Of a stretch of DNA of 64,000 bases, positions 8,147-57,705 are shown piece after piece. A program made the position numbers and the translations under genes. The notes beneath the pieces were generated by a model. It was not told the origin of the DNA, did not search any database, and was given only the letters and a program-made list of their open reading frames with translations. The stretch lies in assembly GCA_001563335.1 (NCBI GenBank), contig LRSL01000117.1, positions 1 through 64,000 of the forward strand, in the 5' to 3' direction. Position 1 is the first letter of the stretch. Each line of letters opens with the position of its first letter. Source of the DNA: Candidatus Thorarchaeota archaeon SMTZ1-45 (lineage in GTDB: Archaea; Asgardarchaeota; Thorarchaeia; Thorarchaeales; Thorarchaeaceae).

Positions 8147-9334
8147 CTAGATGATTCCGACCTGCTTTCCGACCTTCTCATATGCTGCTAGAGCTTGGTC
8201 GAGCTGGTCCTTGGTCAGACCAGAGTTCATCATGTTTCGAATCCGAGCCTTGTCACGTGCAACCATCGGGAACACGATTGGTAGAGCAAGGATTCCCTCC
8301 TTGTAGAGACCATCGCTCAGTGCGACTGCCTTTGAACTCTCGCCGCACATTGCAGGAATGATGGGTGTCTGGCTGTTACCTGTGTCAAAGCCCATCTGCT
8401 GGAGACCTTTGATGAAGTACTCACGGTTATCCCAAAGTGTCTTGACATGTTCCTCCTCGGTTTCGAGGACATCGATAGCCGCTATACACGCAGCTGCGGT
8501 CGCAGGTGGGTGTGAGGCACTGAGGAGCCAGGATCGACTCTTGTTCAATGCATAGTTCACCATGTCGCGACTTCCTGATACGTGACCACCCATGACCCCA
8601 AACGCCTTTGAGAATGTCCCCATCTCGAAATGGACATCCTTGTGGGAGAGGTTGAAGTGTGAAACAATTCCACGGCCTCCCTTTCCAAGGACAGCTTCGC
8701 CGTGGGCATCATCGACATAAATCATTGCTCCGTGTGGTTTAGCAGCCTTCACAATGCCATCCAGAGGTGCGATATCTCCATCCATGCTGAACACTCCATC
8801 GGTGATAACGAGCATCTTCACTGGGTTTTCTTTCTCGGCTTCCGTCAATACCCTCTCTAGGTCTGCAACATCATTGTGCTTGTACACAAAACGTGTCGCC
8901 TTTGTCAGACGAACACCATCGATAATGCTTCCATGATTCAACTCATCTGAGATGATGGCATCCCCTTTGTCGACAAGTTGTGGGATTAATCCTTCATTGG
9001 TAGTGAAACCTGCGCTGTAGGTCAGTGAGGATTCAGCACCCTTGAACTTGGCTAGTCTTCGTTCAAGCTCCAAATGTAAATCCATGGTTCCTGCGATAGC
9101 TCTGACTGAGCCTGAACCAACACCATGGGTCTTGATGGCTTGAAGAGCGGCTTCTTTCATCTTAGGATGGTTACTCAGGTTGAGGTAGTTGTTGCTGCAA
9201 AGCATGATTACCTCCTTCCCATCAATCTTTGCACGAGGGGTTGAAGGACCTTGTAACTCCCTGATTTTCCAGTCAAAATTCTGTTCTACTAGTTTATTAT
9301 ACTCGTCTCTCATCCAACCTGTGGGATCTCTCAT
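8147..9334 (-). CDS. kbl: PLP-dependent alpha-oxoamine synthase (glycine C-acetyltransferase / 8-amino-7-oxononanoate synthase family)
   Basis: CSNNYLNL, GSGSVRAIAGT, DELNHGSIIDG, DGVFSMDGD, DDAHG, GTFSKAFG motifs. Confidence 0.85.
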   Translation of the reverse strand: MRDPTGWMRDEYNKLVEQNFDWKIRELQGPSTPRAKIDGKEVIMLCSNNYLNLSNHPKMKEAALQAIKTHGVGSGSVRAIAGTMDLHLELERRLAKFKGAESSLTYSAGFTTNEGLIPQLVDKGDAIISDELNHGSIIDGVRLTKATRFVYKHNDVADLERVLTEAEKENPVKMLVITDGVFSMDGDIAPLDGIVKAAKPHGAMIYVDDAHGEAVLGKGGRGIVSHFNLSHKDVHFEMGTFSKAFGVMGGHVSGSRDMVNYALNKSRSWLLSASHPPATAAACIAAIDVLETEEEHVKTLWDNREYFIKGLQQMGFDTGNSQTPIIPAMCGESSKAVALSDGLYKEGILALPIVFPMVARDKARIRNMMNSGLTKDQLDQALAAYEKVGKQVGII

Positions 9335-9449
9335 AGTATTCACCGTAAATCCAAACGGTATAGTGCCCCTCAATTATGGGCCATACACACTCCCGCGCCG
9401 CGAATTTTCGACTATATATGACCTTCGTTTCGTACTTTTTCAAACAGAT

Positions 9450-10688
9450 TCAGATTTTGAGAACTGTTCGAGGCATTAACCTCGCCACTATTTCACACAT
9501 TTGGAGGTCCAGAGTGCGTCTTACAACTTCTCTGCCCCTATATGTATATTCCAACTCCCGTGGATTTGAAAAGACCTTTCTTGATTCATGACCGGTTGCC
9601 ATGTCAGTAATATAATAACGTGTCCCGTTGCTCGCTTCAATGACTTGTTCAATTCCAAGAATTGATTGAAACTTATATCCTCCCCCATGAGGTAAAATAT
9701 TGGTATTCAGTAGTCTATGTTTTACATTGTGTTTCTCAGCGCGCCTTGTGAAACCCAAATGCTCTATTATATCCTCATTGAAATTCGGATGACCGCGAAC
9801 TAGATATGCTGGTAAATCCGCTCGAAGTGCAATTGGCAGAAGGTCATCATTATCTTTGCCATGAATATCTTGACAACCAAGAAGATGTTCATTCATATTT
9901 CTCAATCCTTGGTGTATTGGATTGCATATCTCTGTGAATTCACCAAAGATTGCTTCTGCAGCTTTCAAACGTTTCTTCATACTAAGTTCACAAGCAAAGT
10001 CATTCAATTGAAGGTACTCAGATGCATTCTCATCTATAACAACCCATGTCTTTCCAAAAGGCGTATCGATCTCTTCAGACATATCATTTAGTTTCTTACT
10101 TCTGTGGCGATATAACCCAAAGCCAAATTTAGTATCATTGTCTCCTTTAAGTTCCGGTACTGAACCATGTATGATGAAAACATAGTCGTATTCAGAGTCT
10201 GCAGAATTATCCACTGGTTTGTATCTAAATAAGTCGATGAAGTGGTTGCTGACTGCAAAATCCCACTCTATTGGAATTCCATCAATGATTTCATCTGTAC
10301 TAAGAACAGTACTGATATTTTCAATAAGCGCGTGCATAGGGGGTAATGTTTCCAATCCCCCCACAAGCATCCCACAGGCATTAGGCATAGCATCTAGAAA
10401 CACTAACTTTTGCTTTCCATCCCCCCAGGATAACTTTCCACCATAACCAAGCCCACTTTGCCACCTTCGAACGTTACGAGTGACAGTCGCATCTGGTGCA
10501 CTAACAAAAGTAGCATCAGGTTCTAGTGAGTGTTGATTTTGCACCCAATGAAACTTAGCAAGTCCATATTTCATGTTTGTAACACACAAAGCATTTGCAG
10601 AATCCTGTAAACCACTTGAGAAAATATGATCCTTCGCTCTCTCCAACATTTGACTTCTTGTTAAATTTTTGAAGCTAGTCATAGACAT
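9450..10688 (-). CDS. Divergent RtcB-like (3'-phosphate/5'-OH RNA ligase fold) protein
   Basis: RtcB motifs appear in order: APD, NACG, SNHF, IHGS, IHQG, PHGGG, ELEYTYR and C-terminal ARLMPRTVLK. Confidence 0.65.
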   Translation of the reverse strand: MSMTSFKNLTRSQMLERAKDHIFSSGLQDSANALCVTNMKYGLAKFHWVQNQHSLEPDATFVSAPDATVTRNVRRWQSGLGYGGKLSWGDGKQKLVFLDAMPNACGMLVGGLETLPPMHALIENISTVLSTDEIIDGIPIEWDFAVSNHFIDLFRYKPVDNSADSEYDYVFIIHGSVPELKGDNDTKFGFGLYRHRSKKLNDMSEEIDTPFGKTWVVIDENASEYLQLNDFACELSMKKRLKAAEAIFGEFTEICNPIHQGLRNMNEHLLGCQDIHGKDNDDLLPIALRADLPAYLVRGHPNFNEDIIEHLGFTRRAEKHNVKHRLLNTNILPHGGGYKFQSILGIEQVIEASNGTRYYITDMATGHESRKVFSNPRELEYTYRGREVVRRTLDLQMCEIVARLMPRTVLKI

Positions 10689-10721
10689 TCTCCACTCTTA
10701 GTTTTTTTCAGATAACTTATT

Positions 10722-11387
10722 TTACGAGGTCTTTACGAGTCCCTCTTGGTCGAATAAATGCCTAATCGATGCCATCCGCGATTGTAAACGGTCTTCGATA
10801 ATTAGTAGGAATTCAAGAAGCTCGTGGTGCAAATTGTCGCCTAATTTTCTACTATAATCAAAGTTCAGCTTTGCATAATCAAACTTGCGTTTTTCCATAT
10901 ATTTTGTCAGAATATTCTCCATGCTTCCTGTTTTCCCAACAAACCCTCTTAGAAGTCCCATTAAACCGAGTCGATCCAGTGTATCCGCATCGTATACAAT
11001 TCTCTCTTCTGTTGTAACTGGAGGAATCTTTGATGTTGGGGTATGTCTTATTACCACTCGAGCTACTGCATCACGAATTTTTGGGTTAACCTGAAGCCCA
11101 TCAAGATATTCTTCAGCTAAGGTGCCGCCAAGAAGACCATGTATATGATCAAAAGCACGATTTGTCTTTCCAATATCATGCAGTAAGGCTCCAGCGAAGC
11201 AGATGAAGGGATCTACTTTCTCCTCTATGTTTTTAGCTATCTCAATGGTATAACGACAGACTGTAAAAACGTGGGAGTAGTCATGACTGTCACTTACTGC
11301 ATGTGCTTCCCTGACGAATTCCTGCATTTGGAGTAACATCTGGAGCTCTTTATCTGTTAACAACCGTGCGAAGACCATTTTACTCAA
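10722..11387 (-). CDS. HD-domain metal-dependent phosphohydrolase
   Basis: HDYSH...LLHDIGK...HG...RH...YDADTLD. Confidence 0.9.
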   Translation of the reverse strand: MSKMVFARLLTDKELQMLLQMQEFVREAHAVSDSHDYSHVFTVCRYTIEIAKNIEEKVDPFICFAGALLHDIGKTNRAFDHIHGLLGGTLAEEYLDGLQVNPKIRDAVARVVIRHTPTSKIPPVTTEERIVYDADTLDRLGLMGLLRGFVGKTGSMENILTKYMEKRKFDYAKLNFDYSRKLGDNLHHELLEFLLIIEDRLQSRMASIRHLFDQEGLVKTS

Positions 11388-11461: not shown

Positions 11462-12331
11462 TTAACTATGTTTGATGAATGTACCTTCACGATATTCTCG
11501 AAAAGCTAAGTCAAGTTCTTCTCTATTGTTCATAACAATTGGTCCGTACCAAGCGATAGGTTCTCCAATTGGCATCCCTGAAACTAACAAGAATCGAAGC
11601 CGCTTATCTTTTGCTTTGGCAACTACTCGTTCTCCATCCTCGAACAGTACCAGATGCTCAGATTTGATGAGTCTGTCCATATTCTCATCAAAGTATCCCT
11701 CACCCTCGAATACATACACAAACACTGTGTGTCCTTTCTTCACAGAATGAGTAAATTCTTTGCTAGGAGGGACAATCACATCCATGTATTCTGGATCCGT
11801 TACAATCTCACTTACTGGTCCGCATGTGCCATCCAATTTTCCACAGATGATTCTCACACTCGAACCATCTTCTCTGACAATCTCGGGTATTTCTGATGAT
11901 TTAATGTCCTGATATCTTGGATGCATCATCTTGCTTGAGCTGGGAAGATTTGCCCATAGCTGAAAGCCCATCATAATATCATCAGAACGATGTGGCATCT
12001 CTTGGTGGATTATTCCACTTCCAGCAGTCATCCATTGTAAGTCGCCAGATTCGATAGATCCACTATTTCCTAGGCTATCCTCATGCTTCACCTGACCTTC
12101 AATCATATAGGTGATTGTTTCAATCCCTCGATGAGGGTGCCATGGAAACCCCTTCATATAGTCGTCGGGATTTTCTGAACCAAAATGGTCTAGCAGCAGA
12201 AAAGGATCCATTAGCTCTTTTTCATGGTAGCCGAATACACGCTTAAGTCGAACCCCAGCACCTTCGATGGTTGGCTTTGCTTTCATAATTGTCTTAATTC
12301 TACGAGTCTTAACCACTACTATATTCTCCAT
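11462..12331 (-). CDS. Pirin family protein
   Basis: EGAGV, DPFLLLDHF, FPWHPHRGIETITY, WMTAGSGIIHQEMP, GPIVMN motifs. Confidence 0.95.
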   Translation of the reverse strand: MENIVVVKTRRIKTIMKAKPTIEGAGVRLKRVFGYHEKELMDPFLLLDHFGSENPDDYMKGFPWHPHRGIETITYMIEGQVKHEDSLGNSGSIESGDLQWMTAGSGIIHQEMPHRSDDIMMGFQLWANLPSSSKMMHPRYQDIKSSEIPEIVREDGSSVRIICGKLDGTCGPVSEIVTDPEYMDVIVPPSKEFTHSVKKGHTVFVYVFEGEGYFDENMDRLIKSEHLVLFEDGERVVAKAKDKRLRFLLVSGMPIGEPIAWYGPIVMNNREELDLAFREYREGTFIKHS

Positions 12332-14180: not shown

Positions 14181-15746
14181 ATGTATCTAGATATTCTTAG
14201 AGAAGACCCTCCTTTAAGGAGATATGTGTCAAGAGGAGATACGCCAGATGATGTTGATATCCCTGGTCCTCATCAAGAGGCTGATCGTGCTATCTTTCGT
14301 GTGGCAAGATTCACGATGAAAGATCGCACACCCCGATTTCAACCGATACTTGGTGCAGCTGGAATGGGGAAGACACATCTCTATTGGGTTATAAAAGAAC
14401 AAGAAGGTCTTTTCGCAGCAGGTAAATTTCTTGCTGTATATGTTCCATCACCACCGTTTCCAGTTCGAATACCACTCCATTTTCATGCCTGTATTGTCGA
14501 CGAAGGCGGAGATGAGCTGTTCGAAGACACTGTTGATATGCTATTAACAAAGTTTGGAGGCGTGAAAGGAGTAACACATGAGGTTTACGATTACAACTAT
14601 GCAATGGAACGGCTTCTTGTAGACTATCCAGGAATCTCAGCGGATGCTGCCAAGGCTCTCCTTAGATACAGACTAGATCCAGCAACTAGAGACCTTTCAC
14701 GTAGGTGGCTGCTTGGCGATACTTTGAGTGAAACTGAGCTAGAGCGACTAGGAGTTCGTACATTCCTTGAAGAAGATGATGTTACATTTGCCATGCTTAA
14801 GATTTTGACTGAGGGTTCATCGAGACCTATCGTTTTGTTTGTTGATGAGATGGAAGGACCATTCAATGCTTATGGCGAGGAGGCCGAACGTCACTTCTTA
14901 GAAATCCTAAAACGCCTCTACAATGAAACAAAAAATGTCATTATTGTCGCATCTTGTTTAACGGAGATTTGGGACCGAATATACGCTCTAGCTGATGGTC
15001 CAACAAAATCAAGGATGGAAGCCCCCATTCACCTAAAACCATTCACAAAGGAAGATGTATCTGCCTTTGTTTCTGAAACCATGGCCAAGTATTGGGAACT
15101 TCAGAACATCGAGCCCCCTCCTGATCCGTTATTTCCATTTATAGAAAGAGATATTGAAGCCGCATTTTCTAAAAGTGAGGGGAATCCTCGAGAGGCAATT
15201 CGTTTTCTAATTCCTAGATTGGATGAGATTGTGTTTGAAAAGAAAGAAGCAGAGATTGTGCCGCAAGAAGACTATGTTATCAAGCTAACAGCATCAGTCG
15301 TTCTTAATTCAATTGTACAAGCAATAACCCTTGCGGCAAATCCTCTTGGAATCGAAGTTGAACTTAAGGTTTCGGGAGCTGGAACACAAAAACAAGAAGC
15401 AACAATCCTTAACCTGACGAAGGAGGGTATAACTCAATCTATTGGTATTGATTTGCCCAATGTAAAAGAGTGGGATCGAAGTGGAGGCGTCGCTGCTTAC
15501 TATTCTGCAAATCGTCTTAAGACTGTCTTGGACACAAATACTGCCAAAGCTGCTGTGATTGCAGTTCCAACATCCACAAAAGGTACTAAGTTTGAAGCCA
15601 TAATTGAGGAGCTTGGAAGTGCACTGCTAACACTTCGGTTTGATGAGGACACCGCAACTTCATTTGTGCGTGAAACTAGTGAAGGTACTCTTCCACACGG
15701 ATACGCAGAGTCCTTCACTGGACTTGTCGACGGATTGTTTAGCTAG
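14181..15746 (+). CDS. AAA+-type P-loop ATPase with uncharacterised C-terminal alpha/beta domain
   Basis: Walker A GAAGMGKT, Walker B LFVDEME, Arg finger KSRM, sensor-2 GNPRE. Possible ATT start at 14139. Confidence 0.8.
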   Translation: MYLDILREDPPLRRYVSRGDTPDDVDIPGPHQEADRAIFRVARFTMKDRTPRFQPILGAAGMGKTHLYWVIKEQEGLFAAGKFLAVYVPSPPFPVRIPLHFHACIVDEGGDELFEDTVDMLLTKFGGVKGVTHEVYDYNYAMERLLVDYPGISADAAKALLRYRLDPATRDLSRRWLLGDTLSETELERLGVRTFLEEDDVTFAMLKILTEGSSRPIVLFVDEMEGPFNAYGEEAERHFLEILKRLYNETKNVIIVASCLTEIWDRIYALADGPTKSRMEAPIHLKPFTKEDVSAFVSETMAKYWELQNIEPPPDPLFPFIERDIEAAFSKSEGNPREAIRFLIPRLDEIVFEKKEAEIVPQEDYVIKLTASVVLNSIVQAITLAANPLGIEVELKVSGAGTQKQEATILNLTKEGITQSIGIDLPNVKEWDRSGGVAAYYSANRLKTVLDTNTAKAAVIAVPTSTKGTKFEAIIEELGSALLTLRFDEDTATSFVRETSEGTLPHGYAESFTGLVDGLFS

Positions 15747-38737: not shown

Positions 38738-40963
38738 ATGCTTTCAAAATTCTTGAGGTACTCACTCGACACAGAAACGAGGAAGAAAATGATTGCTGGA
38801 GGTATTGCATCCTCACTTCTAGCCATGAGTCTTGTAGTCACTCTGGGCGTAATTGGTGGTTGGAATTTAGACAGGTATACTCACACAGGTCATCCGAATA
38901 GTCCAATCTTTACCATTGATTACACAGTATCGAATGATTTTGCAGACTATATACCATATTCTGAAGAGTTCACTGTAAATGTGCCTTGGTATACGATTTC
39001 TCCAGGTTTATCTAATGTCATAAATCTCAATGATTTTCCACATCTGACAAGTGATCAACGCTCAATGATTGAGGTAAATGGATTCACAGCCACTCCAAGC
39101 GAGTATAATCAGATATATGAAATCCTCCTGGAGAACAAAGACGAGGACATTCCTAGTTTCGTTAGCTCGGATGCAGTATTGCATGCGTTTCATGTCCTAT
39201 ATGATCTTGCTCTCAGAGAAACTGAAGTGTATACCTTTTGGGACTTGTTAGGAAATCTCACATCATCATTGGTTCACAGCTCATATGTGCAATATGAAGC
39301 TGCACCTGATGGTCGATGGAAGGATGCTGCTTTGAGAAATGTCATGTTCTTCTCAGTAGCTCAATACCTACTGGACAATCAAACAGTCCTTTACCCGGAG
39401 GTAATTAATGAGGTTAATACTGTTCTTTCTCTGATTGCATCCCATTCCGATATTTCTGATGCTTGGTTCCAGAATTATAGAGAGGATTTCAGTCAGTACG
39501 TTCCCCGTGGTCATTATACACGTACTGATAGACTGAAACAATTCTTCATGGCAATGATGTGGTATGGACGCATTGCATTTCGATTACAGCCTGGAACAAC
39601 ACCTCTCGAACAAGAAAAAGGGCTGAATGAAACAGCTCAGGCTGTTTTAATGACTCTCGCTCTTCAAGATGATGTAGAAGGTTTCGTGTCTGGAACCAAA
39701 GGTTACGCTGTTTGGGAGGCAATCTATGAACCAACACGATTCTTTGTTGGTGATGCAGATGATCTACTTCCAAAAGAATATGACCAATTAATTGATGAAG
39801 TATTTGGTACGATTACTTCACTCAACGATCTGGATGATGATATTCTGCTATCCGACTTCATTGATTCTGCGCTTGCACTTCGTCCACCTCGAATTCTCTC
39901 ATCGGTAATTAATGACACTCAGAGTATCATAAGTACAAAAGGTCTAAGATTCATGGGACAACGCTTTGTTCCTGATAGTTATTTCTTGAGTCAGTTGGTC
40001 TACGATAATGTCGGAACACGAATCGTTCCAAGAACTTTACCAAAAGGACTAGATGTCATGGCGTCTCTTGGGTCGAATCGTGCATGGGAATTACTTGATA
40101 ATCAGAAGGACTACTATCGATATATTGATCAAATGGAATTCTTGTGGGACTCAGTTGAGAACATGAGCGCCTCAGAATGGACTCACAATCTATACTATCT
40201 GTGGTTGTATTCTCTACTCCCACTTCTTAATGACCCTGGTGATGGATATCCAATGTTTATGCAGAGTGAAGCTTGGGTGGATAAGCAGCTTATGACTAGC
40301 TTGGCCTCCTGGGCAGAACTCAGACACGACACAATTCTATATGCCAAACAATCCTATACTGTGGTTCCTACCGCAGTAACACCACCAGCAGAAAGGGTCG
40401 TTGGATATGTCGAGCCTGTTCCTCGGGTCTATGGCCGCTTGGCAACATTGTGTGATATGATGATTGAGGGGCTTATCGTTCGTAATATTATGTCGGAACG
40501 ACTTCTTCCTAAATTAAGCCTGCTTCAAAGCTTTCTACTAGATCTCAAAGCAATCTCTGAAAAGGAGCTTTCCGGACAGCTTCTGACTGATGATGAAGTG
40601 TATCTTATAAAGAACAGCGGTCGATACATAGAACAAATTTCATCAATAAGTGATTTTGAAGATCTAACATCAGCGGCTGATGAGCGGATGGCTGTCATTG
40701 CTGATGTACATACATACCCTCACCCTGACAATCCAATAGTTCTTGAAGAAGCTGTAGGAAATCCAATGCTCATCTATGTTGCTGTTGAAATTGAAGGGCG
40801 AATTGTCCTGACTCGTGGAGGTATCTTTTCATACTATGAATTTGAGCAACCTCTGGATAATCGACTCACAGATGAAGCATGGCAAGAGATGATAGATTTG
40901 GGGATAGTCCCCTCAATGCCACTTTGGGTTGGCACCTTCGTTGCAGATAATGAGCTTGGTTAG
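38738..40963 (+). CDS. DUF3160-family extracellular protein
   Basis: DAVLHAFH, DFSQYVPRGHYT, MWYGR, RFMGQRFVPDS, SWAELRHDTILYAKQ, GYVEP, FSYYEF, RLTDEAW. N-terminal TM. Confidence 0.88.
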   Translation: MLSKFLRYSLDTETRKKMIAGGIASSLLAMSLVVTLGVIGGWNLDRYTHTGHPNSPIFTIDYTVSNDFADYIPYSEEFTVNVPWYTISPGLSNVINLNDFPHLTSDQRSMIEVNGFTATPSEYNQIYEILLENKDEDIPSFVSSDAVLHAFHVLYDLALRETEVYTFWDLLGNLTSSLVHSSYVQYEAAPDGRWKDAALRNVMFFSVAQYLLDNQTVLYPEVINEVNTVLSLIASHSDISDAWFQNYREDFSQYVPRGHYTRTDRLKQFFMAMMWYGRIAFRLQPGTTPLEQEKGLNETAQAVLMTLALQDDVEGFVSGTKGYAVWEAIYEPTRFFVGDADDLLPKEYDQLIDEVFGTITSLNDLDDDILLSDFIDSALALRPPRILSSVINDTQSIISTKGLRFMGQRFVPDSYFLSQLVYDNVGTRIVPRTLPKGLDVMASLGSNRAWELLDNQKDYYRYIDQMEFLWDSVENMSASEWTHNLYYLWLYSLLPLLNDPGDGYPMFMQSEAWVDKQLMTSLASWAELRHDTILYAKQSYTVVPTAVTPPAERVVGYVEPVPRVYGRLATLCDMMIEGLIVRNIMSERLLPKLSLLQSFLLDLKAISEKELSGQLLTDDEVYLIKNSGRYIEQISSISDFEDLTSAADERMAVIADVHTYPHPDNPIVLEEAVGNPMLIYVAVEIEGRIVLTRGGIFSYYEFEQPLDNRLTDEAWQEMIDLGIVPSMPLWVGTFVADNELG

Positions 40964-41018
40964 GAATGAAGATCCTTATCGACATCCTTATGATTTGTTG
41001 AACCTGTACTCAAATGAG

Positions 41019-42512
41019 ATGGCATTTGTGAAGACATACTCTCTTGCTATAGCTATCATTGTTTCGCTTCTAGTCTTGCCTATTGTTCTGCAAGAACCGA
41101 CAGATGTGTTTGAAAATCAATCATCAATCATACTGGCTGATGATGTACTTCTTCCCGCTGAGGATTATGTTTGGCAAGAGATCAATGGATTCTGTGCATG
41201 GGCTTCAACCACAATGGCTATGCGGTATGCAGGTGTTGACCTTACAATGTACGATGTCTTCGCTGCATCAACAATTGGTTTTTCCTTTGCATACTTTCGG
41301 TTTGATGATACACTACTCATATTTCCAGGTGCTCTGTATACTCAAGCTGAGCCAACGCAGTTTCTTGCAGACCTATATGGGGTTAATTATACACTCTATG
41401 TTGGTGCTGCGATCCCCAACCTGGAACAGAATGTTCAGGTTTGGGAGAGTGAAGGTATACAGGTTGGCATTCTAGATGACCAAACTGATGCCTTTAATCT
41501 GATGCGACAAACAATTGATCAGGGATATCCACTCCTCATTAGTGTTGATCCTATCTATCTTCCAGCCTTTGATTACAATTACTTCAGAGAAGGAGAACTC
41601 ACTGGTGGCGCTCACGGAGTACTCATTGTAGGTTATAACGATGACGAAACTTCTGTAACTATTCTTGACCCTGGTGTCGGATCCTTCGGAGAGTATTATG
41701 GCTATCCTGACGATGGCCGTGGCAATTACACAACAATTACATATACCGCGCTGATTGATGCATGGTCGAGTAGATACTATATCGCAAGCACGTTTCTACC
41801 AGGTACTCTGCCTTCTATCACTATTGATGAACGACTTGGACCTATGATACGCGACAAACTTCTTGGTGTTGGTTCAATCTATTCTCCCAACAGTCCAAAT
41901 GCATTTATTGGAAAATTCGGAGAAGTAGGATTCCGTCAGATGAGCGAAGACATCACTGCTGATGGACTGAAATCATTTCTGAGTGTCTTTGATGGTGTTG
42001 AAGATGAAATTAGCTTCAAAGCATCACTTCTATATTTCATTGGTTTAGGTCTTGAAGCACAGGTCACTCTTCAATATCTATCATATCGTACTGCATTAGC
42101 CAGTTTACCCGCTTTAATGTCTAATAGAAACCTCACTGATTTTGTAGCAGCGGGTGAAATGTCTCTTCCTGCATTTGCTAATATTGCTGATAACTCCTCA
42201 TTGATCTTCCCTGGAAATATCTCACAAGCAACTGGTTTCATTGCATCTACATTTCTTGAGATAGCTCAATCCTTCAATTCAACCGGTGATATCGATGCCG
42301 CACTTGCTCCATACCAGAACACTCTTGATACACTCTCAAACAATCTCTTAACCATAGCAGACTCATGGCGTGATGCAGGAAATGCCCTTGCAGTAATATG
42401 GCCAAATGATTTCCTCACTCAGTATGGACCTGTACTCGCGTTTGCTGGGGGTGGTGTTGCAGTACTCATTATGGTTGTGATTTGGTGGATGCGTCGTAAG
42501 CCATCACAATAG
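41019..42512 (+). CDS. Secreted, membrane-anchored C39-like/papain-fold peptidase
   Basis: Signal peptide, QEINGFCAWAS (Cys), HGVLIVGY (His), ILDP (Asp) and C-terminal TM plus RRK. Confidence 0.78.
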   Translation: MAFVKTYSLAIAIIVSLLVLPIVLQEPTDVFENQSSIILADDVLLPAEDYVWQEINGFCAWASTTMAMRYAGVDLTMYDVFAASTIGFSFAYFRFDDTLLIFPGALYTQAEPTQFLADLYGVNYTLYVGAAIPNLEQNVQVWESEGIQVGILDDQTDAFNLMRQTIDQGYPLLISVDPIYLPAFDYNYFREGELTGGAHGVLIVGYNDDETSVTILDPGVGSFGEYYGYPDDGRGNYTTITYTALIDAWSSRYYIASTFLPGTLPSITIDERLGPMIRDKLLGVGSIYSPNSPNAFIGKFGEVGFRQMSEDITADGLKSFLSVFDGVEDEISFKASLLYFIGLGLEAQVTLQYLSYRTALASLPALMSNRNLTDFVAAGEMSLPAFANIADNSSLIFPGNISQATGFIASTFLEIAQSFNSTGDIDAALAPYQNTLDTLSNNLLTIADSWRDAGNALAVIWPNDFLTQYGPVLAFAGGGVAVLIMVVIWWMRRKPSQ

Positions 42513-46921: not shown

Positions 46922-48595
46922 TCAACGAGCTTTGAATCGAAACTGCTTTTCATAGAGTTGTTTCAATTCATCTAATGTCATTGCATCTATTGGTCCCTTG
47001 TCCTCTCGAATTCGGTTTATCCTAGCAAATCGTAATGCCATTCCAGACACATAAGTTGGGCTCTCTTGAATTTCTGAAGCGATAACTTCAACCACAATCT
47101 CAGGTTTTACTTCCACAATATGCCTATGAGATTCAACCTTTAACTCCAATAGCTTCTGAGTTATCTCCTGAAATTCCTTGTCAGTAAATCCTTTGTAGGT
47201 CTTTCCTACAACAAGGAACTCACCAGACTCATCATCCCTCACTGCAAGATGATAGTCAGAGAGCCAATCCTTACGTCTTCCATGTCCCCATTCTGCTGCA
47301 ACAATAACTAAGTCTAGAGTGTCTAGGGTATGTTTTATTTTGAACCAGTATTTTCCACGTATACCTGGAGTATATGGTGAATCTAATTCCTTTGCGACCA
47401 AACCTTCATGTCCAAGTTTCTTACTCTTCTTAAAGAAGGTCTGAACAGTTGCAACATCATTGGTAACAATTCGTTCAACCAACATTTCTATGGGCATTAT
47501 CTCTTCCAGTTTGTTTCTTCTTTCAAAATAAGGTCTATCTACAAGTTGAACATCTTCTATTAGTATCACATCAAAAAGAACAAGCAGAAGACGAGTATCT
47601 TTGAAAGCCTCTTCAATATCACGAGTTCGACCAAACCTTTTCATTACTGCTTGAAAGGGGAATGGTTTGCCTTCACTATCAACTGCAAGCACTTCCCCAT
47701 CAAGAATTATCTTGTTTGCCTTAGTCTTCTTTCGAACAACACTTACGATTTCAGGAAGACTCTCTGTCACATCACTTAATCTTCTTGAGAATATTCGAAC
47801 TTCATTTCTTTCCTTGTGTATCTGGACTCTTGCTCCATCTAATTTGAGTTCAAATGAATACTCTTTTGGTTGATTTTCAAACAACGTTTCAATGTCTTGA
47901 ACTGGACTAGCTAACATAGGTTTGATTCCACGCATTAATTGAACAGAAATTACCTGTAATGCTTTTGCTCCCCCTACTGATGCGAGTCTTGCCACTTCCC
48001 CCAGATTGCCATTAAAGCTCCACGCTCTCCTGACAAGCGCTGCATCTATATCGAATCCGACTGAGATGGCATCAGCCAGTAGTCCTTCTGAAAGTCCTGT
48101 TCGCATATCCTCAAGCACTATTGCGGTCAAATATCTTGCTTCTCTCGGTGATGCCTCCATCAGTAAGCTAGTTAGTAGAGACTGTTTTTCCTTAAGAGAA
48201 CCTCTGCCTTGAGCATTAGCAATTTTATCAAAGGTCTGACTGACAGATGCAAGTGATAGTGGTTCAGAGAATAGTGTTGACTGACGTGACTTTTTCGAGG
48301 TAGTTAGGATTTTTGCAACTGCCTCACCTGTATCCCCCTCGTAAGCTTGAGAGAGTGCTTTGTCATTAATATCTACAACACTCTTCAATGCATTAAGCAA
48401 TCCTCTCCATGATATGTTGAGAGTGCGTTGATCACTCTCCGCAAACACTTTTCCACTCAAGAAGAGTGCAGCTATACTCACCTCCTCTGATTGCAGCCTA
48501 CGAAGGAATTTTCCTACTAGGTTTATTTTCTCAGTCCTTTTGCGGGTTCTACTTACTTTATCAAGTACATCCGCAAGATAGACAAATTCTGTCAT
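46922..48595 (-). CDS. lig: ATP-dependent DNA ligase
   Basis: PMLA, ELKLDGARVQIH, FSRR, ILDGE, FD, EGLVAK, WFKIK, DLV, LRFARI. Confidence 0.96.
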   Translation of the reverse strand: MTEFVYLADVLDKVSRTRKRTEKINLVGKFLRRLQSEEVSIAALFLSGKVFAESDQRTLNISWRGLLNALKSVVDINDKALSQAYEGDTGEAVAKILTTSKKSRQSTLFSEPLSLASVSQTFDKIANAQGRGSLKEKQSLLTSLLMEASPREARYLTAIVLEDMRTGLSEGLLADAISVGFDIDAALVRRAWSFNGNLGEVARLASVGGAKALQVISVQLMRGIKPMLASPVQDIETLFENQPKEYSFELKLDGARVQIHKERNEVRIFSRRLSDVTESLPEIVSVVRKKTKANKIILDGEVLAVDSEGKPFPFQAVMKRFGRTRDIEEAFKDTRLLLVLFDVILIEDVQLVDRPYFERRNKLEEIMPIEMLVERIVTNDVATVQTFFKKSKKLGHEGLVAKELDSPYTPGIRGKYWFKIKHTLDTLDLVIVAAEWGHGRRKDWLSDYHLAVRDDESGEFLVVGKTYKGFTDKEFQEITQKLLELKVESHRHIVEVKPEIVVEVIASEIQESPTYVSGMALRFARINRIREDKGPIDAMTLDELKQLYEKQFRFKAR

Positions 48596-48676
48596 TTTTG
48601 TTGCACCACAATCTCCAATTACATAGTTCGTTACATCTATATTCTGTGACAAATGTTTAGACTTTGGTTGAAATCG

Positions 48677-52746: not shown

Positions 52747-54915
52747 TTAATCCAGGAATTTGGTCAACCCTCTGGAAAAGGTTGCCTTTGCTTCACTGAG
52801 AGGTATTACAAATTTTCCAAAATCTGCCACAGGATCTGATGTAGTTAGCCCCAGTTCACATGTTGAGATGCCATGTTTGTCAAGTAACTCAAGGAACTCT
52901 GGTTGTTTACTTTCCGTGACTTCCGCTAAATAACGAGAAGCGGTTTCTGAAAAAAGTGCCTGAGCTAAGCTGTTTACTGTGCCAGGAACGTAGTCCATAT
53001 TCAACTTAAACCCATATTCACTATCTACCACCATTTTCATTAGAGCAACAGCGACTCCTCCTCTACCAACATTATTGCAGGATCGTATGAAACCCCGTTC
53101 GTGAGCCTCAAGGATGACATTCATTGCTCGCTTCTCCCAATTAGGTTGATATTTCGGAGGTTCTCCTTTAACTTCACCAATGGTCAATCGTTGAAACTCA
53201 CTACCGTTCAATTCTGGTAGAGTTTCTCCAATTAGGAAGATATTTGCCCAGGGTGTGACAAGGTTTCGTTTAATAGGCGTGAAGCCGCGATTAAACATTC
53301 CTGCAATCATTATCTGAGGCGTTGGATTTATTCTCTTTATTTTTCCATCAATCTCAGATTCGTTATACAATGATACGTTGCCAGCTACGATTGGGAGGTC
53401 AAAGTCATTAGAGAATCTTCCAAGTCCTCTTAGAGCTTCCACAAACTGAGCGTAAGACTCAGGTCTTTCGGGATTGCCAAAATTAAGGCAGTTAGCAATG
53501 AATAATGGCTTTGCTCCCATTGATACAATATTTCTGAGTGACTCAGCAGCTGAATTTGCAGCACCTGTTTGAGGATCAAGCCTGCACCAGAATGAATTGC
53601 AATCACTTGTAAAAGCAAGAAGCCTTCCATTCGGGAACTCTAATACACCTGCATTTTGTCCCAAGTCCACGACAGTATTTGTTTGTACATGTTGGTCATA
53701 CTGACTGAACACCCATGAACGGTCACAAATATTGATTGATTCAAGCATGTTCAGTAGAGCTTTTTTATAATCTTCAGGCTCTTTGAACCAACTCAGAGAG
53801 TCAGTCTGAGCAGGTATTTTTCCTTCAACTCTTTCAGGAATTGGGAAACCATCCACTAGTAGACTGATCGGGAGTCGGGCAATCACCTCTCCTTGATACT
53901 TTGCAGTGTAATGACCATCATTGGTTACATTTCCAATTATTGCATAAGGTGTATCATTCTTTTCGAGTAATGTTATCACACGTTCCATATTTGAAGGAGA
54001 TATAATAGCAAGCATTCTTTCTTGAGACTCAGAGATAATAATCTCTGAGAGTTCCATATCCTTCTCCCTAAGTGGTATTTTTTCTAGATCTATTTCTACT
54101 CCCGTCCCTCCTGCTTTGGCGAGTTCTCCAGCAGCTGATACCAATCCTCCCCCACCAAAATCCTGTAGGCCATCTAGAAGTTCCTCTTCAATGAGTTCAG
54201 TCAGAGTATCAATCAAGACCTTCTTTGCTAGGGGGTCGCCAATCTGAATTGCACCACGACTTTCCCTAGTATCATCTGAAAGTGTTTCTGATGCAAAACT
54301 GACACCTCCTATACCGTCTGGTCCTGTTGTAGCACCAAACATTACGAGATTATGTCCTGGAGTTCTAGCACTGCTTCTAACAACTTTCTCTGGTCTCACA
54401 AATCCGATACATACCACATTAACCAAGCAATTTTCATCGTATGAGTCATCGAACTCGATTTCCCCACCAACAACTGGAATTCCAACACCATTCCCATAAT
54501 CGGATATTCCTCGAACTATGTTCTCAAGAAGATAGGCATTATGAGGTTTCTCTGGGTTTCCAAGCCGCAAACAGTTCATCAAACCCACTGCCTTGCATCC
54601 TTGTGAAATGACATCTCTTACAATTCCTCCAACACCAGTTGCTGCTCCGTTGTATGGATTAACCTGACTTGGATGATTGTGGGACTCCATAGCAACTCCA
54701 ACATAATATCCTCCTCCAATGTCTACAAGCCCTGCTCCTTCTCCAATGCCTAGAATGACATTTTCTCCAGAGGTTTTGAAAAGATAAAACCATCTTTTAC
54801 TACTCTTATAGCTACAATGTTCTGACCAAAGGACGTCGAGCATAGCAAGTTCTGTCTTGGAAAGCTCCCTACCCAAGACTTTCTTTGCATGCTGTAATTC
54901 ATCCTTTGTAATCAT
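52747..54915 (-). CDS. purL: FGAM synthase subunit PurL (small form)
   Basis: WSEHCSYKSS, ESHNHPS, GAATGVGGIVRD, QIGDP, QDFG, SESQERM, QYD, LNFGNP, GNVSLYN. Confidence 0.93.
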   Translation of the reverse strand: MITKDELQHAKKVLGRELSKTELAMLDVLWSEHCSYKSSKRWFYLFKTSGENVILGIGEGAGLVDIGGGYYVGVAMESHNHPSQVNPYNGAATGVGGIVRDVISQGCKAVGLMNCLRLGNPEKPHNAYLLENIVRGISDYGNGVGIPVVGGEIEFDDSYDENCLVNVVCIGFVRPEKVVRSSARTPGHNLVMFGATTGPDGIGGVSFASETLSDDTRESRGAIQIGDPLAKKVLIDTLTELIEEELLDGLQDFGGGGLVSAAGELAKAGGTGVEIDLEKIPLREKDMELSEIIISESQERMLAIISPSNMERVITLLEKNDTPYAIIGNVTNDGHYTAKYQGEVIARLPISLLVDGFPIPERVEGKIPAQTDSLSWFKEPEDYKKALLNMLESINICDRSWVFSQYDQHVQTNTVVDLGQNAGVLEFPNGRLLAFTSDCNSFWCRLDPQTGAANSAAESLRNIVSMGAKPLFIANCLNFGNPERPESYAQFVEALRGLGRFSNDFDLPIVAGNVSLYNESEIDGKIKRINPTPQIMIAGMFNRGFTPIKRNLVTPWANIFLIGETLPELNGSEFQRLTIGEVKGEPPKYQPNWEKRAMNVILEAHERGFIRSCNNVGRGGVAVALMKMVVDSEYGFKLNMDYVPGTVNSLAQALFSETASRYLAEVTESKQPEFLELLDKHGISTCELGLTTSDPVADFGKFVIPLSEAKATFSRGLTKFLD

Positions 54916-55604
54916 TTAGTAGCCCTCACAAAGTTATCCAAAATTTGTAGTCCATCAGAGGATCCTAAAACCGGTCTTGATGCTCTTTCAGGATATGGCA
55001 TCATTCCAAGAACGTTCCCCTTTTGATTTGTAATTCCTGCGATATTTTCAATTGATCCATTTGGATTAGCATCTGTTGTTATTTCACCTTGAGCATCACA
55101 ATATCTGAATGGAATTCGACCCTCATGGTTCAATGCATCAAGATGTTCATTTTGACAGTAATAATTGCCCTCAGCATGAGCTATAGGTACTCGTATAACT
55201 GCACCTTCTATATTCTCAATGAATACAGATGGACTTTCACTTACACGAACATAGACCCATTTACATACAAAACGGGCGGAGTAATTGGGTAGAAGTGCTC
55301 CTGGCAGGAGTCCTGTTTCGGTCAGTATTTGAAAGCCATTGGAGATTCCAATAACTGGTTTCCCATCTTCTGCAAGATCTCTAATACCTTCAGTTATGAC
55401 TTCCATTGACGCGACTGCTCCGGCTCTCAAATAATCCCCATAGGAAAAACCTCCAGGTATCACGATACCATCTGCGTCTTTTAATCCTGCAAGCCCTTTT
55501 CTACTCGGAACAAGGTAAGGTTTTGCCTCGGGAATCTGGTTGAGTGCTCGTAGAACATCGTTCTCACTGTTAGTTCCAGGAAACCTAATCACTGCGATTG
55601 ACAC
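54912..55604 (-). CDS. purQ: PurQ homolog lacking catalytic Cys and His
   Basis: FPGTN, PGGFSYGDYLRAG, GISNGFQIL, AHAEGNY, NPNGS, GMMPYPER. Confidence 0.9.
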   Translation of the reverse strand: MSIAVIRFPGTNSENDVLRALNQIPEAKPYLVPSRKGLAGLKDADGIVIPGGFSYGDYLRAGAVASMEVITEGIRDLAEDGKPVIGISNGFQILTETGLLPGALLPNYSARFVCKWVYVRVSESPSVFIENIEGAVIRVPIAHAEGNYYCQNEHLDALNHEGRIPFRYCDAQGEITTDANPNGSIENIAGITNQKGNVLGMMPYPERASRPVLGSSDGLQILDNFVRATK

Positions 55605-56569
55605 TATTTGAAATTCACCTCTTGCTTTTCGGATATTGGATTTGACAAGAGCTTGATGTTCATAATTTTGAGGTGATTAAGTACTTCAGACGTAATGGGT
55701 TTCCTAAGAAAGATATTGAATACTTTTCCCACTCTCACATCCTCAGCTTCTCCAAATCCTAGTCTAACTAATGCTCTCTTGGTTACCTCTCCTGGGGGAT
55801 TCCTGATTCCATCTTTGGGATTTACTAAGACTTGCACCATCTCTTTCCGAACATTTACTTCCTCTGGTTTGGTTTGGGTTATTACCTCGATGAGTTTCGA
55901 GTAAACCTCGAATATTCCTCCTTTCTCCTTTCCAAATACATCCCTATCTCTCGAATCTGAAGAAGTATCCCATATTCTCATTGTATCCCCTGATAGCTCA
56001 TCCGCCAAAACAATATGCCCATCTTTTGTATAACCAAACTCAAGCTTGAAGTCAACCAGCGTGAGACCCTGTTGCTTCAATAACGCAGTTAAGTAATAGT
56101 TCGTAGAATGGGTTACAGACTGCATGAATTGTAGAATCTCATTTTTCACAAGCCCCAGACTAGTAATTGCATTTTCTATAATCAAAGGATTATTCAGTTT
56201 GTCATCTTTTAAAAAGAATTCAATAATAGGTGATTCAAGAACTGTACCCTCTTCTACTCCATAACGGGTACAAAATGATCCTGCTGCAATGTTTCGGCAC
56301 ACGATCCCTATAGGAAATACATTCACTTTTCTACAGAGTAATCTAGGACCATCAAGCGCTTTCAAAAAGTGTGTGTCTATACCCTTGCCCTCAAGATATC
56401 CGAGAAGATATTCGGTCATCCTGCAAGCCAGATTCCCTTTCCCTTCAATCTCTTCTTGTCTCTTTCTATCTCCTCCCATTACAATATCTGTAAATTCGAT
56501 AATCACATTATCAGTTGATTTAGGGTCTTGGTAGATTCTCTTCACTTTTCCTTCATGAATAAGGTCCAT
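55604..56569 (-). CDS. purC: PurC (SAICAR synthetase)-PurS fusion with degenerate PurC site
   Basis: EGKVK, RNIAAGS, LVDFKLEFG, LADE, RIWD. The C-terminal ~80 aa are PurS-like (NPPG...LGF...VRVGK...LLSNPISE). Confidence 0.85.
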   Translation of the reverse strand: MDLIHEGKVKRIYQDPKSTDNVIIEFTDIVMGGDRKRQEEIEGKGNLACRMTEYLLGYLEGKGIDTHFLKALDGPRLLCRKVNVFPIGIVCRNIAAGSFCTRYGVEEGTVLESPIIEFFLKDDKLNNPLIIENAITSLGLVKNEILQFMQSVTHSTNYYLTALLKQQGLTLVDFKLEFGYTKDGHIVLADELSGDTMRIWDTSSDSRDRDVFGKEKGGIFEVYSKLIEVITQTKPEEVNVRKEMVQVLVNPKDGIRNPPGEVTKRALVRLGFGEAEDVRVGKVFNIFLRKPITSEVLNHLKIMNIKLLSNPISEKQEVNFK

Positions 56570-56617
56570 GATTTCCTCTCCTTGCTTTCTTTATGAGGGT
56601 TGGTGGACTAAATAACT

Positions 56618-57691: not shown

Positions 57692-57705
57692 CTATCTCAC
57701 CTCCA

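Follow-up and report, generated by a model that had tools for sequence, protein, structure and literature searches.

The locus considered here, in a 64,000-nucleotide stretch of a contig (LRSL01000117.1) of Candidatus Thorarchaeota archaeon SMTZ1-45 (the window), raises the question of whether a protein that looks hypothetical, here called T, is an RtcB-type ligase, and what it might act on together with the HD phosphohydrolase encoded beside it. A sequence-only reading had described a highly divergent RtcB-fold ligase with RtcB motifs in the correct order, paired with an HD gene ending 33 nt upstream on the same strand. Both ORFs (412 and 221 aa) are found as claimed, with that spacing and orientation. 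The motifs listed for T are likewise all present in the claimed order, namely P65-D66, P102-N103-A-C105-G106, D143-F-A-V-S-N148-H149-F150, I-H174-G, H259, P333-H334-G-G-G337, Y383-R384 and P406...K411. Coordinates are given in Table 1.

Table 1. Features of the T and HD genes in the window.
Feature	Position	Strand	Remark
T gene (RtcB-superfamily protein)	9450..10688	-	ORF, 412 aa from ATG 10688
P102-N103-A104-C105 codons, counterpart of RtcB D-x-x-C metal motif	10374..10385	-	Cys kept, Asp out of register
N148-H149-F150 codons, RtcB 'GNHF' motif	10239..10247	-	Aligned to EcoRtcB N167-H168-F169
H174 codon	10167..10169	-	Counterpart of M1 ligand PhoRtcB H234 / EcoRtcB H185 (hhalign)
H259 codon	9912..9914	-	Probable counterpart of M1 ligand PhoRtcB H329 / EcoRtcB H281
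P333-H334-G-G-G-Y338 codons	9675..9692	-	Counterpart of RtcB 'HGAGR' with nucleotidylated His
Spacer, HD stop codon to T start, 33 nt	10689..10721	-	GGAG just upstream of T ATGs
HD gene, YpgQ/YedJ-type HD phosphohydrolase	10722..11387	-	ORF, 221 aa from TTG 11387

Translation of T probably starts at ATG 10682, giving 410 aa, because the copies in databases are of this length and GGAG lies 7-8 nt ahead of this second ATG. Orthologues of the HD protein begin with MVF, and its start is therefore probably ATG 11378 rather than TTG 11387. Scanning with Rfam and for tRNAs revealed no RNA genes in the window or at three other loci.

T matches 0 Pfam and 0 NCBIfam families at E≤1, and phmmer against the PDB returned one irrelevant match only (E 0.23). 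PF01139 also gave no match in 17 of 17 distant or longer homologues. A total of 852 homologues were found, the family comprises at least 234 clusters at 50% identity, and every source-given name among the best 120 is 'hypothetical protein'. A literature search found no paper on the family. Two peptide patterns, built on a 25-sequence alignment, identified 187 relatives among 185,579 species genomes. The family is rare, with a patchy distribution over many anaerobic bacterial phyla, Bathyarchaeia and Asgard archaea, and the loci include both cultured Lokiarchaeia genomes. Locus counts below cover 80 of the 187 relatives, with totals of 81 including the window, and residue conservation was counted over an alignment of 68 diverse homologues. 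The median isoelectric point of T is 6.1 versus 5.9 for E. coli RtcB, which does not discriminate between them. A 565 aa homologue (P0171) considered as a fused form was rejected as it looks like a frameshifted tail, and a 410-aa Clostridia neighbour considered as a paralogue of T proved to be an endonuclease Q homologue.

The relationship to RtcB emerges at the level of structure and profiles. An AlphaFold (AF2) model of T has a pLDDT of 90.6 and a pTM of 0.91, with pLDDT <50 in the loop just ahead of H149 (residues 145-148). In a Foldseek search of the PDB, the 12 matches listed at E≤0.001 all come from RtcB of human, zebrafish, T. thermophilus and P. horikoshii, with E 2e-8 to 2e-6 and probability 1.00, and the remaining 4 of the 16 matches at this threshold are, according to the tool's note, further chains of the listed entries. 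The next match has E 0.036. TMq values are 0.42-0.47, which is below the usual 0.5, and identity to the solved RtcBs is 10-13%. When the T family profile was searched against the PDB, the top four matches were RtcB sequences (E 0.023-0.079), and hhalign of the T family with RtcB gave probabilities of 70-87% (E 3.9e-5 to 3.7e-6). The RtcB profile used there has 3 sequences only, as the search seeded with a Bathyarchaeia RtcB gave only proteins >80% identical. A global hhalign alignment, in which the N-terminus of T fell in an RtcB insertion, was discarded; the other runs span E 2.3e-5 to 3.7e-6. Of the 30 named ESM-Atlas language-model neighbours of T, 28 are PF01139 clusters. As had been proposed, the predicted structure has an RtcB-like fold, with Foldseek matching RtcB only and the profile alignments in agreement. 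T is a new, previously unmodelled branch of the RtcB superfamily.

Most of the catalytic core of RtcB has counterparts in T. All 68 homologues have H149, H174, H259 and H334, and D66 (67/68), F150 (67/68), N148 (66/68) and C105 (64/68) are nearly invariant. In a permissive hhalign alignment C105 corresponds to the bridging Cys (EcoRtcB C78, PhoRtcB C98), with E 0.0033 in an N-terminal-only run. N148-H149 aligns with EcoRtcB N167-H168 and PhoRtcB N202-H203; the Asn of this NHF motif contacts the NTP and the 5'-OH, and the His is an M2 ligand, according to the accessible parts of PMC9745838 and PMC8051266, which were also the source of the other metal, NTP and 5'-OH strand contacts. H174 falls on the M1 ligand in all hhalign runs. 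H259 is paired with the 'HN' His (EcoRtcB H281, PhoRtcB H329) when a distant-subfamily profile is used and lies 12 residues off with the whole-family profile. Both hhalign and the profile search against the PDB place H334 on the nucleophilic His of the HGAG loop (EcoRtcB H337, PhoRtcB H404). In this loop G337 is present in 68/68 homologues, and the next residue, Arg in RtcB HGAGR, is Tyr338 in T (Y in 57/68). At the guanine-contact positions, D152 aligns with EcoRtcB E171 and PhoRtcB E206, and K411 with EcoRtcB K407 and PhoRtcB K480. Across the 68 homologues position 152 is D in 25, N in 15 and E in 11, and position 411 is K in 47 and R in 8.

The differences fall in one metal site and in the residues that hold the 5'-OH strand. 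The sequence-only reading had noted that the Asp of DxxCG is out of register, and the M2 Asp of RtcB (PhoRtcB Asp95, EcoRtcB D75) indeed aligns to Pro102, with Asn103 one residue off. A one-residue gap in another profile run pairs the T-family Asn with this Asp. Of the M2 ligand pair, the counterpart of the His (H149) is kept and that of Asp95 is not. Position 103 is N in 62/68 and Asp in 2/68, and, judging from the alignments, Asn103 alone could replace the M2 Asp. PhoRtcB R238 aligns to Pro178, a position occupied by P in 28, S in 14, R in 6 and K in 4 of 68 homologues. PhoRtcB R190 and Q194 have no counterpart in T, which misses the segment of ~60 residues carrying both. Of the 5'-OH-strand contacts of PhoRtcB (N202, R238, R190 and Q194), N202 has its counterpart in N148.

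The product of the adjacent gene matches PF01966 (E 6e-12, 46.3 bits versus a cut-off of 22) and, by sequence, the PDB entries 2pq7, YedJ and 5dqv. The best Foldseek match of its AF2 model (pLDDT 85.8) is B. subtilis YpgQ (5dqw/5dqv; E 1.6e-6 to 7e-6), with TM 0.64-0.78 (TMt 0.74-0.78) and 19-23% identity. Its score with the NCBIfam YedJ equivalog model is 40 bits, below the cut-off of 286. H39, H70-D71 and D135, the ligands of the H...HD...D motif as defined in the accessible text of PMC8177086, show no variation across 25 orthologues, and the same holds for H83 and H115. Together with H35-D36, which is invariant too, H83 and H115 suggest a dinuclear site.

T is genomically coupled to one subfamily of HD phosphohydrolases. 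An orthologue of the HD protein is encoded within 5 kb of T in 33/80 loci, plus the window, and lies on the same strand, chained to T by gaps of ≤150 nt, in 27/80 loci and in the window as well, with HD upstream of T in 16 of these cases and downstream in 12. This operon linkage occurs in many phyla and in both gene orders, the HD gene preceding T in certain clades and following it in others, and is scattered over the T tree such that at least 12 changes are required. No HD gene is in the operon at 53 of 81 loci (window included). HD is by far the most widespread neighbour cluster, being found at 34 loci versus ≤10 for any other, and the proposed check of HD conservation next to homologues of T did not refute the pairing.

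Other neighbours are more varied. Endonuclease Q directly follows T in 3 Bacillota loci (gaps of 3, 3 and -4 nt), PolX is the adjacent gene in 4 Planctomycetota loci, Archease is near T in 3/80 loci, and a cyclic-nucleotide-phosphodiesterase-like metallophosphoesterase is near T in 5. SbcCD-like, TatD, RNase H and PHP-domain genes were seen once each, and PrfH was not found as a neighbour in the 80 loci. Neighbours of amine or peptide type include ATP-grasp ligases (~12 loci), arginine decarboxylase (10), deoxyhypusine synthase (9), lysine 2,3-aminomutase (3) and EF-P (1). A pyruvoyl arginine decarboxylase and deoxyhypusine synthase are in the T operon in three loci (L062, L072 and L080; gaps of 16-50 nt), and further operon partners in other lineages are Ddl-like and ATPgrasp_ST ligases, lysine 2,3-aminomutase, a PLP decarboxylase and an FAD amine oxidase. 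In the window the operon partner of this kind is Kbl/BioF.

With the RtcB catalytic core kept, the known RNA-gripping residues missing and one particular HD gene often adjoining it, T probably stands for a family of phosphate-activating ligases not studied so far. The reading that we prefer, held at a little short of even confidence, is that T would be an RtcB-superfamily enzyme that seals DNA or RNA ends through a His-NMP intermediate, with the HD protein as phosphoesterase of an accessory module. By analogy with RtcB, T would bind two transition-metal ions and an NTP, and for T of the window this is likely to be GTP since the acidic D152 and the C-terminal K411 are kept at guanine-contact positions. 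A covalent His334-NMP would most likely form, from which the NMP would pass to a phosphate monoester, and attack by a hydroxyl would then produce a phosphodiester. DNA or RNA ends are our leading guess for the substrate, most likely a broken end with a 3'-phosphate and a 5'-OH, which T would grip otherwise than canonical RtcB does. The HD enzyme, whose gene shares the operon with T, would supply the phosphoesterase activity and might trim cyclic or extra phosphates to leave a ligatable end, or strip dead-end NMP caps. The pair would then be an accessory module and not the housekeeping tRNA ligase. Of the two-gene system proposed by the sequence-only reading, the RtcB-like fold, the pairing with HD and the distinctness from housekeeping RtcB are supported by the data, and the nucleic-acid ligase role is what we infer.

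Other explanations differ in what they make of the likeness to RtcB. That it is a chance run of short motifs in an unrelated protein is scarcely credible. The null results with Pfam, NCBIfam and phmmer and the TM-scores below 0.5 would suit this view, but four independent approaches (Foldseek, the profile search against the PDB, HMM-HMM alignment and language-model neighbours) all reach RtcB alone, and the positions of T that match RtcB are the invariant ones. As four His are invariant in every homologue aligned and both fold and profiles point only to RtcB, the motifs are more than chance. It is very improbable that T is the housekeeping tRNA-splicing RtcB of its host, diverged beyond recognition. 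No canonical RtcB is present among the 45 ORFs of ≥150 aa in the window, which covers 64 kb of the genome only, as would be expected if T filled that role. However, a canonical RtcB (PF01139-type) is located ≤5 kb from T in two related loci (L018 and L029), so the two coexist in at least two lineages, and the rarity of the family and the loss of strand-binding residues also argue against it. With no RtcB model detecting T, the earlier claim that T is distinct from housekeeping RtcB is upheld.

The remaining alternatives accept RtcB-type chemistry and change the substrate. It is possible, though somewhat unlikely, that T performs His-NMP chemistry on a small molecule or phosphoprotein, an NDP-linked intermediate being converted to a phosphodiester, with HD as the phosphatase or pyrophosphatase of the pathway. 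Cobamide and F420 synthesis have GMP-activated steps that proceed likewise, through an NDP-linked intermediate to a phosphodiester. The lost 5'-OH-strand contacts, the variable guanine-contact position 152, the amine, ATP-grasp and polyamine enzymes in T operons of other lineages and Kbl/BioF in the window all fit such a role, as does the homologue P0142, in which T is fused to an APH-family small-molecule kinase domain (PF01636, 3.2e-20). Yet this fusion is one cluster representative among 150 listed, and a search for longer fused forms, itself weak evidence, found none. Across lineages only HD recurs and no single metabolic pathway does, the endonuclease Q, PolX, Archease/RtcB and phosphodiesterase neighbours suit nucleic acids better, and every characterised RtcB works on polynucleotides (PMC9745838 and PMC8051266). 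In a more specific form, which we consider fairly unlikely, T would found a second family within the RtcB superfamily, in which the His-NMP chemistry has shifted from RNA ends to a phosphate not carried by a polynucleotide (that of a phosphoprotein, a phosphorylated metabolite, or a conjugate with a polyamine or peptide), with HD as its dedicated phosphoesterase; if true, this would be the first RtcB-type ligase outside nucleic-acid repair, common to Asgard archaea and anaerobic bacteria. An improbable alternative is that T and HD make and break a nucleotide-derived signal or dinucleoside polyphosphate, T transferring the NMP on His334 to a second nucleotide at its phosphate, and HD hydrolysing the product. 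Among characterised proteins YpgQ is nearest to the HD protein, and its low-efficiency hydrolysis of (d)NTPs (accessible text of PMC8177086) is consistent with this. So are weak NCBIfam matches of the HD protein to a YqeK-type Ap4A hydrolase (E 0.13) and to further HD enzymes that act on nucleotides, a cNMP-binding protein encoded between T and HD in one locus (L077), and the phosphodiesterase-like metallophosphoesterases in 5 loci. Against it, T is not regularly accompanied by any effector or sensor gene, and we know of no RtcB-type enzyme that makes nucleotide-nucleotide signal products. T also has no match in PADLOC or PHROGs, and so shows no sign of belonging to a known defence or phage family, and a tblastn search of 72,556 plasmids and 50,697 phage records gave no match to it.

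To our knowledge no enzyme family other than RtcB seals 3'-phosphate ends, and no other family with the RtcB fold has been described. The T family keeps the metal and His core of RtcB with one metal ligand and the strand-binding residues changed, and knowing its substrate would reveal the reach of RtcB chemistry and assign a role to a conserved HD subfamily. YpgQ, the characterised protein nearest to this subfamily, has weak known activity only.

Among known systems, B. subtilis YpgQ and E. coli YedJ resemble the HD partner in structure and in the H...HD...D ligands. The HD partner differs from them in its low identity (19-23%), its score below the YedJ cut-off and the extra invariant H35-D36, H83 and H115, and the accessible text of PMC8177086 does not mention coupling of the YpgQ/YedJ group to an RtcB-like gene. 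T shares with RtcB (PF01139; P. horikoshii, E. coli and human RTCB) the predicted fold and the order and spacing of catalytic motifs, including the bridging Cys, the M2 His, one M1 His and probably the other (H259), the Asn of NHF, the nucleophilic His in an H-G-x-G loop, the C-terminal Lys and a Tyr not far from it. Unlike RtcB, T has ~60 fewer residues from the Cys to NHF and no PDxH His; Pro-Asn, out of register, stands in place of the Asp M2 ligand, Pro in place of R238 and Tyr in place of the HGAGR Arg. It is also unseen by the PF01139 and NCBIfam RtcB models, shares only 10-13% identity with solved RtcBs, and has an HD enzyme rather than RtcA as its usual partner, with Archease in 3/80 loci only. 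In HD-Pnk and in the bacterial Pnkp/Hen1 heal-and-seal RNA repair systems an end-preparing phosphoesterase (HD or metallophosphoesterase domain) is encoded with a ligase, as in the T-HD pair. However, these systems heal to 3'-OH/5'-P ends for ATP-dependent ligases, whereas 3'-P/5'-OH ends are what an RtcB-type sealer requires. The healing step performed by the HD partner of T would thus have to be a different one. The RtcB2-PrfH and other accessory RtcB paralogue modules, as covered in the accessible parts of PMC9223846 and PMC13166195, are described as RtcB ligases partnered by a release-factor homologue, whereas T has no PrfH neighbour in the 80 loci and is unrecognised by family models; what they have in common with the T-HD pair is an RtcB-type enzyme in an accessory two-gene module beside the housekeeping ligase.

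The 412-aa RtcB-superfamily protein, T, and the HD phosphohydrolase (HD) belong to a run of genes transcribed in the same direction, in the order pirin, HD, T and a Kbl/BioF-type acyltransferase. Translation probably begins at the second ATG of the T open reading frame (10682) and at ATG 11378 for HD. Elsewhere the window looks like a typical stretch of archaeal chromosome, with genes for purine synthesis, transporters and a DNA ligase. Canonical RtcB is absent from its 45 ORFs of ≥150 aa, and no RNA genes were found in it. A 521-aa protein encoded nearby carries a Walker-A-like G-M-G-K-T motif and has no Pfam match; its homologues (neighbour cluster c5) occur in 7 Thorarchaeota-type-clade loci, often divergent from and adjoining the HD-T pair.

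Features of the window and of related loci (L numbers), with residues of T aligned to RtcB of E. coli (Eco) and P. horikoshii (Pho); homologue counts are out of 68
Feature	Position	Strand	Remark
Acyltransferase, Kbl/BioF-type	8147-9373	-	
T ORF, 412 aa	9450-10688	-	sequence read
T residues 145-148	10245-10256		loop into conserved N148-H149-F150; G-T-L-G-x-G lead-in in RtcB
HD ORF, 221 aa	10722-11387	-	sequence read; 33 nt before T ORF
Pirin	11462-12331	-	
521-aa protein	14181-15746	+	
DUF3160 protein	38738-42512	+	E 6.5e-187; 35-nt overlap with 527-aa BtrH_N / peptidase-C39-like protein; C39-like/TPR protein also downstream of T-HD in L044
ATP-dependent DNA ligase	46922-48652	-	complete (N, adenylation, OB domains); ~36 kb from T gene, no link with it observed
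Purine biosynthesis run	52747-58659	-	PurL-like and PurQ-like genes, SAICAR synthetase-PurS fusion, two tandem DUF1246/DUF1297 proteins
Endonuclease Q homologues	L038:3089-4321, L043:1702-2618, L059:6194-7432	+	start 3, 3 and -4 nt past T gene
Archease by T or T-HD unit	L018:4215-7995, L029:732-6774, L032:2880-4629		abutting, opposite strand
Lokiarchaeum ossiferum T paralogues	L066:5001-6218, L072:4965-6194		separate chromosomal sites; neither with operonic HD
ArgDC and DHS downstream of T	L062:2268-3842, L072:6224-7804, L080:6244-7844		gaps 16-50 nt
ArgDC, DHS and agmatinase	L037:1-2307		divergently upstream of T
Weak ATPgrasp_ST protein	L058:6240-7622, L062, L071:7551-8918		downstream in T operon; in L062, 473-aa ORF after DHS
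T C105			C78 Eco, C98 Pho; C in 64
T N148			N167 Eco, N202 Pho; N in 66
T H149			H168 Eco, H203 Pho; H in 68
T D152			E171 Eco, E206 Pho; D25, N15, E11
T H174			H185 Eco, H234 Pho; H in 68
T H259			H281 Eco, H329 Pho only with the 27-member profile, 12 residues off in another alignment; H in 68
T H334			H337 Eco, H404 Pho; H in 68
T Y383-R384			Y380-K381 Eco; Y59, R66
T K411			K407 Eco, K480 Pho; K47, R8

As a single sequence, T had no match at E≤1 in Pfam and NCBIfam, none in PADLOC, PHROGs, plasmids or phages, and one irrelevant phmmer match in the PDB (E 0.23). Its closest homologues are 89-91% identical, the named ones coming from Sifarchaeia/Thorarchaeota bins. At E≤0.001 the family comprises 852 proteins among 3348 candidates; in a separate count of sequences clustered at 50% identity, 234 clusters pass this threshold. 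All names that sources give to the top 120 proteins read 'hypothetical protein', and none of the 120 has a precomputed Pfam domain. The family is covered by no curated model, and a full-text literature search on RtcB-like families, paralogues, HD and Asgard found no paper describing it.

The earlier proposal, made from sequence, of a divergent RtcB-fold protein is borne out by Foldseek, profile and ESM-Atlas comparisons, all of which point at RtcB. When a profile of 68 family sequences was run against the PDB, the four best hits were RtcBs, though weak ones (E 0.023-0.079), with GAPDH next at E 0.21. In hhalign, the family profile matched E. coli RtcB alone with 76% probability (E 2.3e-5) and three RtcBs with 70-83% (E 3.9e-5 to 8.9e-6), and a profile made from the 27 most divergent members reached 87% (E 3.7e-6). 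The AlphaFold2 model (25 sequences; pLDDT 90.6, pTM 0.91) falls below pLDDT 50 only at residues 145-148. Of its 16 Foldseek matches in the PDB at E≤0.001, every one of the 12 listed is an RtcB, the others being, as the tool states, further chains of those entries. The RtcB matches (E 2e-8 to 2e-6, probability 1.00, TMq 0.42-0.47, identity 10-13%) are followed by the next at E 0.036, and ESM-Atlas feature neighbours fall in RtcB clusters in 28 of 30 named cases. Profile and structure-prediction methods agree on RtcB as the relative of T, and show a predicted RtcB-like fold with a conserved RtcB catalytic centre.

HD scores above the Pfam HD cut-off and has sequence matches in the PDB to 2pq7, YedJ and 5dqv. 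The structure closest to its model (pLDDT 85.8) is B. subtilis YpgQ (E 1.6e-6, TMt 0.74-0.78), described in a review as a Mn-dependent (d)NTP pyrophosphohydrolase of low efficiency (PMC8177086). Residues H39, H70-D71, H83, H115 and D135 are invariant across 25 orthologues, which fits the extended dinuclear HD motif as set out in that review.

Two peptide patterns found 187 T relatives in contigs from one genome per species, from which the 80 best loci were retained. The taxa include Thor-, Hermod-, Hel-, Jord- and Lokiarchaeia, Bathyarchaeia, Methanocellales and Nano-/Woesearchaeota, and bacteria including Desulfobacterales, Spirochaetota, Planctomycetota, Chloroflexota, Bacillota and Actinomycetota. 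Lokiarchaeum ossiferum has two copies and P. syntrophicum MK-D1 one. An HD orthologue lies ≤5 kb from T in 33/80 loci, and HD is the sole neighbour cluster occurring in >10 loci. Operon linkage of T to this one HD subfamily recurs: in 27/80 loci and the window, T and HD are co-oriented and linked by successive gaps of ≤150 nt. HD lies upstream of T in 16 of these cases (Asgard, Bacillota, Helarchaeota, Deferrimicrobiota), and in the other 12 (Spirochaetota, Desulfobacterales, Chloroflexota, one Bathyarchaeia) it lies downstream. On a FastTree tree of 81 T proteins, this linkage needs at least 12 changes. The pairing proposed in the sequence-only reading is seen in these operons; 53/81 loci have no operonic HD, some of them on contigs too short to judge.

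T would form His334-NMP using two metals, then activate a phosphate monoester and seal the activated phosphate to a hydroxyl, with HD supplying a phosphoesterase step. Broken DNA or RNA ends are the most likely substrate, at a little under an even chance, because these are the substrates of every known RtcB and because genes for repair nucleases, polymerases and phosphodiesterases, as well as Archease, recur near T. T is directly followed by an endonuclease Q homologue in 3 Bacillota loci (E 1.1e-59 to PfuEndoQ) and by PolX and an NTPase in 4 Planctomycetota loci. RNase J-like genes (4 loci), a CpdA/YfcE-like metallophosphoesterase (5 loci) and genes of the SbcCD-like, TatD, RNase H and PHP-domain kinds (one occurrence each) are found nearby. 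The endonuclease Q homologue matches NCBIfam TIGR00375 below its cut-off; L038 and L059 have an HD-T-EndoQ operon, and in L043 the contig does not extend far enough to reveal an HD gene. Archease is near T in 3 loci, two of which (L018, L029) also carry a separate canonical RtcB ≤5 kb away. T is distinct from housekeeping RtcB, as had been supposed, and a housekeeping role for T itself is unlikely, since at least two lineages have canonical RtcB alongside it. The T-HD and Archease-RtcB pairs of L018 converge, with a 12-nt overlap between the ORFs of HD and Archease.

A non-polynucleotide substrate is a less probable alternative to nucleic-acid ends, favoured by the loss of RtcB's strand-binding residues, an APH-type kinase fusion and amine/ATP-grasp gene contexts. 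Pyruvoyl arginine decarboxylase (ArgDC) is near T in 10 loci, deoxyhypusine synthase (DHS) in 9, agmatinase in 6, ATP-grasp ligases in about 12 and lysine 2,3-aminomutase in 3, with EF-P directly upstream in 1. T, ArgDC and DHS are co-directional in 3 Lokiarchaeia-type loci; in Planctomycetota loci, L037 among them, both enzymes and agmatinase are encoded divergently upstream, so the association recurs in archaea and bacteria alike. T operons of three unrelated phyla (Helarchaeota, an unclassified archaeon, Chloroflexota) encode a 455-473-aa protein whose sole match, to ATPgrasp_ST, is weak; its L058 and L071 members had no match in an NCBIfam scan. In the T homologue P0142 (743 aa), the T domain is complete, retains every motif and is fused to an APH-family phosphotransferase domain at the N-terminus (PF01636, E 3.2e-20); no other T fusions were found.

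In P. horikoshii RtcB, as described in PMC9745838 and PMC8051266, C98, H234 and H329 bind metal M1, C98, D95 and H203 bind M2, H404 is guanylylated, N202 contacts the 5'-OH as well as the phosphates, guanine is recognised by E206 and K480, and the 5'-OH strand is gripped by R238, R190 and Q194. Residues were mapped from profile alignments and conservation was counted in 68 homologues; the catalytic residues of T would cluster in space. T differs from RtcB at the M2 Asp, which aligns to Pro102 beside an Asn103 kept in 62/68 homologues, in line with the out-of-register Asp noticed earlier. The PDxH His is missing, Pro178 occupies the R238 position, Tyr338 replaces the Arg of HGAGR, and T is without the ~60 residues between Cys and NHF that bear R190 and Q194 in RtcB.
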